Shown here piece after piece: positions 10,448 through 13,583 of a stretch of DNA of 64,000 bases. The DNA lies in NCBI RefSeq assembly GCF_003334385.1, contig NZ_QOWN01000021.1; one strand, written 5' to 3'. A program made the translations under genes and the position numbers. This stretch comes from Escherichia coli (GTDB taxonomy: Bacteria; Pseudomonadota; Gammaproteobacteria; Enterobacterales; Enterobacteriaceae). The notes under the pieces were generated by a model. It did not search any database. It was given only the letters and a program-made list of their open reading frames with translations, and was not told where the DNA came from. Numbering within the stretch: position 1 is the stretch's first letter; the number at the start of each line of letters is the position of its first letter.

Positions 10448-10667
10448 AACCCTTTCTCCCTGTTAATCATGAACAAATCATTCGCCATGATTATAATATT
10501 TATCCCTGATATTTGTCTGGTTCTTTTTCCTTACGAACTGTTTCTGTGATGAATATATTCTCACTGAACACCAGGAATTCTCCCAAAACCTGTGGTACCG
10601 CCCGTTTTCCCGCTGTGATAGCTACCCTTAAAGACTGACTCTTTTTTGAACTGTCTCTGGAGGTTGC

Positions 10668-11906
10668 ATGAAAGCATTGACTTATCACGGCCCACATCAC
10701 GTTCAGGTAGAAAATGTTCCCGATCCGGGCGTTGAACAGGCAGATGATATTATTCTGCGTATTACGGCAACGGCGATCTGTGGCTCTGACCTCCATCTTT
10801 ATCGAGGCAAAATACCTCAGGTTAAACATGGCGATATTTTTGGTCATGAATTTATGGGGGAAGTAGTTGAAACCGGAAAGGACGTAAAAAATTTGCAAAA
10901 AGGCGACCGAGTGGTAATTCCGTTCGTCATTGCTTGTGGCGACTGTTTTTTCTGTCGATTGCAACAATATGCCGCCTGCGAAAATACCAATGCGGGTAAA
11001 GGCGCTGCGCTCAATAAAAAACAGATACCAGCTCCAGCGGCATTGTTTGGTTATAGTCACCTGTATGGCGGCGTTCCTGGTGGGCAGGCGGAATATGTCC
11101 GCGTCCCTAAAGGGAATGTGGGGCCGTTTAAAGTACCGCCTTTGCTTTCAGATGATAAAGCGCTTTTCCTTTCTGATATTCTGCCAACGGCATGGCAGGC
11201 AGCAAAAAATGCGCAGATCCAACAAGGTTCAAGCGTTGCAGTCTATGGTGCTGGTCCTGTGGGATTGTTGACAATCGCCTGTGCACGGTTGCTCGGTGCG
11301 GAACAGATTTTTGTTGTTGATCATCATCCCTACCGCTTGCATTTCGCCGCCGACCGCTACGGCGCGATCCCGATTAATTTTGATGAAGACAGCGATCCGG
11401 CACAGTCAATTATTGAACAAACGGCAGGTCACCGGGGCGTGGATGCAGTAATAGACGCCGTCGGTTTTGAAGCGAAAGGCAGCACCACGGAAACGGTGCT
11501 GACTAACCTGAAACTGGAGGGCAGCAGCGGTAAAGCGTTGCGTCAGTGTATTGCGGCGGTCAGGCGTGGCGGCATTGTTAGCGTACCGGGCGTCTACGCT
11601 GGATTTATTCACGGTTTCCTGTTTGGCGACGCCTTTGATAAAGGGTTGTCGTTTAAAATGGGACAGACCCACGTTCACGCATGGCTGGGAGAATTATTAC
11701 CGTTAATTGAGAAAGGATTACTGAAACCAGAAGAAATTGTTACCCACTATATGCCGTTTGAAGAGGCCGCCCGGGGATATGAGATTTTCGAAAAACGTGA
11801 AGAGGAGTGCCGTAAGGTGATTCTGGTACCCGGTGCACAAAGCGCAGAGGCGGCGCAGAAGGCGGTTTCAGGTCTGGTGAATGCGATGCCGGGGGGAACA
11901 ATATGA
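10668..11906 (+). CDS. ybdR: Zn-dependent alcohol dehydrogenase-family oxidoreductase
   Basis: 412-aa ORF; medium-chain dehydrogenase motifs ([12 protein letters not shown], CGxCxxC, GAGPVG). Confidence 0.9.
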
Positions 11907-11909
11907 TCG

Positions 11910-11999
11910 TCAGGAGTGGTTTTCGAGGTAAAGGACAGCCATGACGATAATCGCCGCCATAATCAGAAATCCTATCAGGATGTAAAATGCTTCTGCCAT
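11910..11999 (-). CDS. Candidate 29-aa single-pass hydrophobic small protein (unannotated to my knowledge)
   Basis: ATG at 11999-11997, stop TGA at 11912-11910; MAEAFYILIGFLIMAAIIVMAVLYLENHS; weak GGGA Shine-Dalgarno 6 nt upstream; downstream of rnk on the same strand. Confidence 0.25.
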   Translation of the reverse strand: MAEAFYILIGFLIMAAIIVMAVLYLENHS

Positions 12000-12136
12000 G
12001 GTTATTCCCACAAACGAAACGGAATAATTTTGCAGCAAAAGTGAACAGTGAGAACCAGGAAAAATTGCTGATTTTGCGTAAAGAGGATGCGAGTGCATCC
12101 TCTGGGCAAAGCGAGTTATCGCTTGTGCAGATGGGA

Positions 12137-12547
12137 TTAAAGCAGGTAGTCGCCAGCAGCTTCTGGCTGGTATTCGAGTTCCAGCACTTCAAGGTGGGTT
12201 GCAACGCCGCCCGGAAGTTCCCAGTGAATGGAATCGCCAACGCGCAGCCCCAGCAGTGCGGCACCTACCGGAGCCATAACGGAAAGCTGAGTATTGCTAT
12301 CGGTCATTTTTGCCGGATACACCAGCGTGCGCACACGCACTTCGCCATCGCTAAGATTGCGGAATTTAACCCGGCTGTTCATTGTCACCACGTCGTGTGG
12401 CATCTCTTCTGGCGAACACATTTGGGCGCGATCCAACTCTGCGTTTAACGCGTCGGCGATTGGCAAACCAGCATAGGCGGGTTGCTCCAGCAGAATATCG
12501 ATGCGTTCGGCATCCAGGTCGTTAATGATGATAGTTGGTCTGGACAT
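12137..12547 (-). CDS. rnk: Regulator of nucleoside diphosphate kinase (GreA/GreB-like)
   Basis: 136-aa [26 protein letters not shown]..., recognised as Rnk. Confidence 0.9.
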
Positions 12548-12776
12548 TTTTACTCCATGTCGTCGGTGCTGCGAGTGTCGCAGATAAACATACCCAAAAG
12601 AAAACCCTCACCGTCAGGCGGCGAGGGTTTAACTCACATGATGATACTGACTGTTGCTCACTCTTTGAAGTGATTTGCGTCACATTCAGGGAATTCCTCA
12701 ATGCAGCGCATTATGTATAAATCTTAATCGCCTTGGTTTATGGAAGACGAATTAGCGTGTTTTGTAAATCAGATGA

Positions 12777-13583
12777 TTAATAACCCGCTTTATCAATCAC
12801 AAAGGTTTTGCCACAGTTACCTGGGTGAGGTTGTGGCAAGAATGAGTTTGCAGAAAGCGGAGCGTTGATGGCGTCAGCTTTGATCGAGATCTGAATTTCA
12901 GTCAAATACGCAGGGTTACCCTGGCACGTTAGCTTAACTGCTTTCACGTTCTCTTTTCCCCAGCTTTTGGCAAAGGCGGCGTCAAAGTCACGGCGGCTCA
13001 CTGTTTTACCGTAATTATCCGCAAGGAATTTTCCGGCTTCGCTCTCTTTAATTTCTTGATTCAGGCGTACCATCGTACCGAAGTATGCGTCCGGATCAAA
13101 ACCAAAGCAGGCACCGTGTTTGGCATATTCGTAGCGTTCCAGGCAGGAACGTCCGCCAGCTCCTGGCATGACTTCACTTAGTTTAGCGGCCGTTTCCAGT
13201 GATAATCCGGTTTCCGGCGATGAACACATTCGGCTGGCGCGCGCTTCTGGTAGATTCGGGATTGGGCGAGTAGCGCAACCGAAGCGCATCCAGCGGCGTT
13301 CATCAACACCACGGGCAGCAACCGATTTAGGCAATCCTGGCCACAGACCATGTACGGTCAGAAAATCAGCTTTGTTGGTCGTTTCGGTTTGCAGGCGACA
13401 TTCATCTCGTTCGTTACGATTTCGATCGTGTTGACTCTGGCAAAATCCGGTTTGCCAGGAGAGGGCCAGGACATAGCGATCAAAATCGCCATACTGTTTT
13501 GCCTGCAACGCTAAGGCGTTGGCAGAAGAGAAGGGAAGCAGAGAAACCGCGAGCAACGCGGCGTTACGCCAGAATGCTTTCAT
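12777..13583 (-). CDS. rna: Periplasmic ribonuclease I (RNase T2 family)
   Basis: Start set at MKAFWRNAALLAVSLLPFSSANA (signal peptide) within ORF 12777-13601; RNase T2 motifs (HGLWP, KHGACF). Confidence 0.9.
   Translation of the reverse strand: MKAFWRNAALLAVSLLPFSSANALALQAKQYGDFDRYVLALSWQTGFCQSQHDRNRNERDECRLQTETTNKADFLTVHGLWPGLPKSVAARGVDERRWMRFGCATRPIPNLPEARASRMCSSPETGLSLETAAKLSEVMPGAGGRSCLERYEYAKHGACFGFDPDAYFGTMVRLNQEIKESEAGKFLADNYGKTVSRRDFDAAFAKSWGKENVKAVKLTCQGNPAYLTEIQISIKADAINAPLSANSFLPQPHPGNCGKTFVIDKAGY

Follow-up and report, generated by a model that had tools for sequence, protein, structure and literature searches.

The region between ybdR and rnk

The DNA analysed here, which we call the window, is a stretch of 64,000 nucleotides from Escherichia coli (RefSeq assembly GCF_003334385.1, contig NZ_QOWN01000021.1). 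In the window, ybdR ends at position 11906 and the stop codon of rnk starts at position 12137. Hence, the two genes are separated by 230 bp. The minus strand of this gap contains a short ORF, from an ATG at 11999 to a TGA at 11910, that corresponds to the gene yldA. Translation of the ORF gives the peptide MAEAFYILIGFLIMAAIIVMAVLYLENHS, and the surrounding minus strand reads ...tgtGGGAataaccATGGCAGAAGCA...CACTCCTGA. A sequence-only reading of the window had already pointed to this ORF and peptide, to the 230 bp gap, and to a weak GGGA element (12009-12006) with a spacing of 6 nt. All are borne out by the sequence and, for the ORF, by the list of open reading frames. The features needed below are as follows.

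11910..11999, minus strand: yldA coding sequence; ATG at 11999-11997, TGA at 11912-11910, 29 codons plus stop
12006..12009, minus strand: GGGA, weak and Shine-Dalgarno-like, 6 nt before the ATG; presumed to function as such
12027..12054, minus strand: best candidate sigma-70-like promoter, TTCTCA-16 nt-CAAAAT; 8/12 matches, its -10 element stopping 27 nt short of the ATG; weak and putative
12067..12071, minus strand: TCAGC, the K-12 form of a TCA-C(C) motif, lying some 10 nt past the rnk hairpin; conserved in aligned yldA-bearing loci
12083..12102, minus strand: rnk 3' stem-loop, GAGGATGC-ACTC-GCATCCTC, followed by only three T (to 12080); upstream boundary of the yldA unit, belonging to rnk

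Note that the ORF list contains dozens of ORFs of 20-60 amino acids nearby, within 4 kb, and that 29 codons alone are unremarkable. Hence, it is conservation, together with published detection of the protein, that places yldA beyond chance, rather than the size of the ORF.

The sequence-only reading took the ORF to be unannotated. This proved incorrect. Positions 10501-13500 of the window are an exact substring of the MG1655 locus, where yldA has the same position as our ORF (b4734, YP_009518757.1, NC_000913.3 643330-643419, minus strand, between ybdR and rnk). The gene is present in RefSeq for MG1655 and for the other E. coli records listed. When positions 11700-12300 were compared by megablast with 5426 complete E. 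coli genomes, 5423 proved to have the segment. Among the full-length matches listed, the annotated genes are ybdR, rnk, and 'yldA: small membrane protein YldA'; in strain E2863 the annotated yldA coding sequence coincides exactly with the ORF in the window. Similarly, the NCBIfam equivalog model NF041476 ('small membrane protein YldA') covers the ORF, aligning residues 1-29 with model positions 1-29 (57.9 bits, E = 7e-16, cutoff 45). The same model scores six YldA orthologues of other lineages at 52.9-68.1 bits. We regard it as virtually certain that the ORF is the known, annotated yldA (b4734), and that the gene is real. The finding is a rediscovery, yldA having been named, detected, and annotated in 2018-2019. 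It also means that a genuine small-protein gene could be picked out, by a reader, from raw sequence alone.

The name yldA comes from VanOrsdel et al. 2018 (Proteomics 18:1700064, PMC6001520). Their Table 1, of the small proteins that the study detected, gives yldA with flanking genes ybdR and rnk, coordinates 643330-643419, a length of 29 amino acids, and the same peptide (PMC6001520). Detection relied on an SPA tag, added to the C-terminus in the chromosome, and on anti-FLAG immunoblots of cells grown in LB and taken in the exponential and stationary phases (PMC6001520). Chromosomal SPA tagging had been suggested alongside the sequence-only reading as a way to check the ORF; a positive result was already in print (PMC6001520). 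The 13 new proteins that tetracycline ribosome profiling also picked up do not include YldA, and for no protein of the 2018 paper did a study by mass spectrometry yield a peptide (PMC6001520). For the RNA, tiling arrays in anaerobiosis place yldA in a cluster of 100 genes that rise dose-dependently with NaF; the cluster also contains psp, osmotic-stress, phoPQ, rstAB, mgtA, and mgtS genes (PMC10100675). We found no functional experiment on YldA in the literature.

Between Glu3 and the segment Leu-Glu26-Arg-His-Trp, YldA has a 22-residue hydrophobic core (mean Kyte-Doolittle hydropathy 2.7-3.1). From this hydropathy (core mean 2.7), and from the name in the annotation, we infer that YldA is a membrane protein. 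Its likeness to validated E. coli small membrane proteins, remarked on from the sequence, stands: YldA is of the small, hydrophobic, single-helix class, is conserved, and has a published SPA-tag detection. Taken as a whole, the identity of the ORF as yldA and the general reading as a small membrane protein are highly probable.

Purifying selection on yldA

Conservation of the ORF and synonymous-site variation had also been suggested as checks, and both come out in its favour. Orthologues were sampled by Rnk-anchored synteny from 80 species-representative loci of the Enterobacteriaceae. An ORF matching YldA, on the same strand, was present at 34 of the 80 loci, mostly ~138 bp after the rnk stop codon (range 126-310 bp). 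These loci are from Escherichia, several Citrobacter, Enterobacter, Lelliottia, Leclercia, Pseudenterobacter, Phytobacter, and one Kosakonia. The 34 orthologues and the window provided 35 DNA sequences, all distinct, for analysis of selection. Every one of the 35 has an ATG start and exactly 29 codons. The family consensus is MxExLxITLxFLIxxAIIVxAVLYLERHW, in which M1, E3, A21, V22, L25, and E26 are invariant across the 35 sequences. Third positions of the codons for these invariant residues vary, by up to 1.8 bits. Over the whole gene, mean entropies at codon positions 1, 2, and 3 are 0.66, 0.48, and 1.17 bits. The median dN/dS is 0.23 and the pooled pN/pS 0.39; the C-terminal half is more constrained (0.28) than the N-terminal half (0.48). 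Across yldA, the two remaining sense frames are uninterrupted in just 3 and 9 of the 35 sequences. We conclude that, in many Enterobacteriaceae, the yldA that follows rnk is held to a length of exactly 29 codons by purifying selection.

Two other readings of the ORF bear on this conclusion. Logically, an ORF could arise by chance in the spacer, or in the rnk 3' untranslated region, and the tagged band would then reflect spurious, functionless translation. Such an idea fits with the many similar-sized ORFs in the region, the weak Shine-Dalgarno, the failure to find a consensus promoter, and the absence of yldA from 46 of 80 species. It also fits with YldA being missing from the tetracycline ribosome-profiling screen, and with mass-spectrometry data that lack all of the paper's proteins. 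However, the constant ATG and 29 codons, the six invariant residues over variable third positions, and the low dN/dS all argue the opposite, as do the other sense frames, which are mostly closed. Furthermore, yldA is found in about 5419 of 5426 E. coli genomes, where two alleles with just 51 of 90 nucleotides identical share the motif AAIIV-AVLYLE. The codon-periodic conservation leads us to exclude a chance ORF, the probability of which we put at next to nothing. It is similarly hard to credit, to the point of being scarcely conceivable, that the true product is a 62-residue protein made from an upstream in-frame ATG at 12098. The frame is indeed open across 11910..12098 in the ORF list, but this ATG sits within the 5' arm of the rnk stem-loop. 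Moreover, 16 of the 35 sequences have an in-frame stop no more than 17 codons ahead of the conserved ATG, an upstream in-frame ATG occurs in only 3, and the upstream residues are unconserved. The NCBIfam model and the published protein are both of 29 amino acids.

Distribution of yldA and its neighbours

In E. coli, yldA is near-universal (about 5419 of 5426 complete genomes) and has two deeply diverged alleles. The first haplotype has the order uspG-ybdR-yldA-rnk, with the K-12 type of yldA, and accounts for 3601 genomes. The second, uspG-yldA-rnk, lacks ybdR and encodes the peptide MSEALGITAFYIFIAAIIVAAVLYLEQRW; it accounts for 1818 genomes (B2/E. albertii type). The two alleles are identical at 15 of 29 residues and 51 of 90 nucleotides. 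Their divergence starts directly after the rnk stem-loop. For the haplotypes as a whole, between uspG and the rnk hairpin, window positions 10668-12076 were set against positions 5707-6000 of a ybdR-less locus. The C-terminal tails are ENHS in the K-12-type allele and EQRW in the B2-type allele; the family consensus is ERHW. The B2-type protein is identical to that of E. albertii, and K-12 YldA is closest (22 of 29 residues) to the allele of the Citrobacter amalonaticus group. The latter resemblance suggests either an old recombinational replacement or a long-lived polymorphism. Separately, E. coli HS-02 is among the few E. coli genomes with only a partial match to the yldA region (NZ_CP172818.1 630519-630679; 94.4% identity over 73% coverage), and it lacks an annotated yldA. 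In this strain, the copy may be disrupted or further diverged.

No YldA-like sequence was found, in any frame within 3 kb of rnk, at 46 of the 80 species loci. Among these loci are those of Salmonella, the C. freundii group, Kluyvera, Trabulsiella, most Kosakonia, E. cloacae DSM 26481, and E. hormaechei. In nearly all of the 46, the next large gene is no more than about 170 bp from rnk, a distance too short for the ORF and its usual spacer, and no remnant of yldA was detectable at the yldA-less loci. Hence, yldA is dispensable in many lineages, Salmonella among them. Closely related Enterobacter species differ in this respect: E. cloacae M-7 and E. mori have yldA, while E. cloacae DSM 26481 and E. 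hormaechei have neither the gene nor a detectable remnant. For yldA and ybdR, all four combinations of presence and absence occur among the Enterobacteriaceae loci; the two genes have been gained or lost independently across the family. Useful comparison material is provided by the two E. coli alleles (52% identical) and by the clean loss of yldA in Salmonella, Kluyvera, and some Enterobacter.

The stop codons of ybdR (11906) and yldA (11910) are convergent and only 3 nt apart (11907-11909). The same 3 nt gap is seen in Citrobacter sedlakii, and the equivalent distance in Enterobacter-group loci is about 8-10 nt. We found no terminator-like structure between the ybdR and yldA stops. Hence, transcripts from the two genes must overlap. 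This agrees with a published analysis by ExcludonFinder, which counts ybdR-yldA among the convergent excludons, the transcripts overlapping in at least 50% of RNA-seq samples (PMC12288877).

Expression signals and the rnk 3' stem-loop

Most orthologous loci have a G-rich run (GGGGA, GGGA, or GGAA) at the site equivalent to the GGGA in the window. A match of at least 4 nt to AGGAGG is present in only 2 of 35 yldA loci. Scanning for sigma-70 consensus elements, with a threshold of 9/12, gave no promoter upstream of yldA; one match was inside the ORF and another was upstream of rnk. The best candidate below this threshold, TTCTCA-16-CAAAAT, is not conserved in position across genera. Similarly, a scan of 35 upstream regions for consistency of position found no promoter site common to the whole yldA family. 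The sole site that recurs across species, TTCACC-18 nt-CAAAAT, is present in several loci of the Enterobacter group, 45 nt ahead of the ATG, and there overlaps the conserved TCA-CC motif. In the alignment of this motif, T69, C70, A71, and C73 are invariant. The motif is a putative -35 element or binding site. Inspection by eye of the DNA upstream of yldA revealed no convincing match to a sigma-54 promoter, PhoP box, or PhoB box. A terminator-like match within the yldA ORF (11962-11939) was dismissed as chance, being in coding sequence and having only 3 G-C pairs.

Since the Shine-Dalgarno is weak, and no strong promoter was found, expression of yldA looks low. Transcription might start at a weak promoter of its own or might result from read-through of the rnk stem-loop, which is poor in T.

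The stem of this rnk structure is invariant in 20 aligned yldA-bearing sequences that span genera. The exact hairpin is present at 33 of 34 yldA-bearing loci and at 20 of 46 yldA-less loci (53 of 80 in total). Most other loci have close, partly compensatory variants, such as GAGGATGT...ACATCCTC and GGGGATGC, and only 2 of the 80 have an unrelated hairpin after rnk. We considered the hairpin as an element specific to yldA and rejected this, since it is equally present where yldA is absent. Note that conservation of the sequence GAGGATGC-N4-GCATCCTC-TTTCCG exceeds the needs of a plain intrinsic terminator. Such conservation might mark a site recognised by a protein or RNase. An Rfam scan of the ybdR-rnk gap identified no RNA family. 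Upstream of rnk, at 12593-12700 on the minus strand, is a match to RF01771, 'Enterobacteria rnk leader' (116.9 bits, gathering threshold 50), cut at its 5' end by the edge of the query. This known cis-regulatory leader is unrelated to yldA.

Sequence relationship between YldA and YoaI

YoaI is a small inner-membrane protein, transcription of which is induced by PhoB (PMC11429745). Its C-terminus is cytoplasmic, it binds EnvZ in two-hybrid assays, and it raises EnvZ-OmpR output; both of these activities need Glu31 (PMC11429745). The NCBIfam model for YoaI, NF041475, is the second-best match of every YldA variant, with YldA residues 3-29 in register with YoaI residues 8-34. Scores are 22.5 bits for K-12 YldA and 22.6-34.1 bits for other variants, all below the curated cutoff of 45. 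Hence, YldA is not a YoaI equivalog. In the reciprocal comparison, YoaI scores 14.1 bits against the YldA model. A profile of the YldA family scores E. coli YoaI at 18.9 bits, a value reached by none of 1000 composition-preserving shuffles (mean 0.45, sd 2.0). For eight further small proteins of E. coli, taken from the 2018 table, the profile gives -2.6 to 2.8 bits.

The families were also compared with each other, the YoaI alignment having been built from a search of 1.84 billion representatives. With hhalign, YldA and YoaI match at 96.7% (E = 3.8e-10) over 27 ungapped columns. The score of 39.4 compares with maxima of 17.1, when all YoaI columns were shuffled, and 24.6, when only the hydrophobic core was shuffled and the charged flanks were kept; in neither control did any of 300 shuffles reach the observed score. 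Furthermore, the invariant residues of YldA and YoaI coincide: E3 with E8, I7 with I12, F-or-Y11 with F16, V22 with V27, and E26 with E31; A21 pairs with S26. Glu26 is invariant in 35 of 35 sequences (34 of 34 distinct YldA proteins) and the aligned Glu31 in 18 of 18 YoaI sequences. The ENHS tail of K-12 YldA lacks the Arg that aligns with Arg/Lys32 of YoaI.

On this evidence, the YldA family looks related in sequence to the YoaI family, and we propose a YoaI-like superfamily. Convergence of short helices can also produce a likeness of this kind. We found no paper in the literature that names both YldA and YoaI; the relation, and the correspondence between Glu26 and Glu31, are new here as far as the literature that we found goes. 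The text of the paper on YoaI in low Mg2+ does not contain the name YldA (PMC11429745), so YldA is outside that paper's table of 17 induced proteins. The DNA near yoaI contains other small genes. Directly after dgcP, at MG1655 1878773-1878948, yoaK (32 amino acids, putative membrane protein) and yoaJ (24 amino acids) lie back to back. They are unrelated to yldA.

A possible role for YldA

We suggest that YldA would be a single-pass inner-membrane protein with a periplasmic N-terminus and, like YoaI, a cytoplasmic C-terminus, here the ERHW-type tail. Probably, YldA has no activity of its own. Its most likely mode of action would be packing of the transmembrane helix against a larger inner-membrane protein, so changing the activity of the partner. 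The invariant Glu26, placed at the cytoplasmic boundary of the membrane, could be the key contact. Judging from sequence features, we lean slightly towards YldA being a modulator of a membrane protein. Sensor histidine kinases are the leading candidate class of partner. Both this class, and contact via Glu26, are proposed because YoaI depends on the aligned Glu31 to bind and activate EnvZ. A sensor kinase as the specific partner is a tentative suggestion, made by analogy with YoaI, that we consider more doubtful than not. We are equally guarded about a broader conjecture: that YldA and YoaI might be ancient paralogues, from an unrecognised family of ~30-residue transmembrane helices bounded by Glu, and that YldA might dock on a histidine kinase (EnvZ or another) via Glu26.

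Two rather different roles can be imagined for yldA. Ibs, Ldr, ShoB, and DinQ are small hydrophobic type I toxins, which YldA resembles in size and hydrophobicity. If YldA were such a toxin, it would damage the inner membrane and be silenced by an antisense RNA, possibly the convergent ybdR transcript. The arrangement of the ybdR and yldA stops, convergent, 3 nt apart, and listed as an excludon (PMC12288877), would suit this, and a weak Shine-Dalgarno fits tight translational control. However, tagged YldA accumulates from the native locus in rich medium with no harm reported, and yldA is single-copy, syntenic, and near-universal in E. coli rather than multi-copy or repeat-associated. The ybdR transcript is the sole antisense candidate, as no Rfam family is found in the ybdR-rnk gap, yet a third of E. 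coli genomes lack ybdR, as do at least 19 of the 34 species loci that carry yldA, where uspG is next. In addition, the closest relative, YoaI, is a signalling modulator. A toxin is, in our judgement, very unlikely. We attach just as little weight to the idea that yldA is a regulatory upstream ORF, or leader peptide, of which translation itself controls uspG or, via transcriptional interference, ybdR. In favour, yldA precedes uspG by about 90-130 bp, on the same strand, in the arrangement that lacks ybdR, and there is the reported excludon relation with ybdR (PMC12288877). On the other hand, purifying selection acts on the amino-acid sequence of YldA, which is unexpected if translation alone matters. 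Similarly, K-12-type genomes keep yldA despite the oppositely oriented ybdR that separates it from uspG. Many species have rnk-uspG without yldA and, hence, uspG is independent of yldA.

Modulation of a larger membrane protein is thus the role that we prefer for YldA. If this involves a kinase, YldA would be one more small-protein input to two-component signalling, and the K-12 (ENHS) and B2 (EQRW) alleles might differ in partner or in strength. The YoaI-like pattern, including the glutamate used by YoaI to bind EnvZ, provides a testable hypothesis for a protein of no known function.

Comparison with known systems

The ORF does not differ from YldA of E. coli K-12 (b4734; NF041476): peptide, position, strand, and DNA are all identical. 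Like the type I toxins Ibs, Ldr, ShoB, DinQ, and TisB, YldA is small and highly hydrophobic. In contrast to these toxins, YldA has no cognate antisense sRNA known or found, is encoded by a single-copy, syntenic gene, and is expressed natively in rich medium. MgrB, which acts on PhoQ, and SafA and MzrA, which acts on EnvZ, are short, single-pass inner-membrane proteins that bind a larger membrane protein (PMC11429745). YldA would fall in the same class if, as we suggest, it also binds such a partner. However, MgrB, SafA, and MzrA are longer (47-127 amino acids), with periplasmic or cytoplasmic segments that YldA lacks, and we detected no sequence relation. The closest parallel is with YoaI (b1788, 34 amino acids; NF041475). 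In both proteins, one transmembrane helix, predicted in the case of YldA, lies between an N-proximal Glu (E3/E8) and a C-proximal Leu-Glu-(Arg/Lys) (E26/E31), and the predicted topology places the C-terminus inside. The N-terminus of YldA is shorter by 5 residues, lacking the MNDQM head, and hydrophobic residues replace the conserved (T/S)-S-S stretch of YoaI. The two genes are also at different loci and, whereas YoaI is undetected in rich medium, YldA is detected there.
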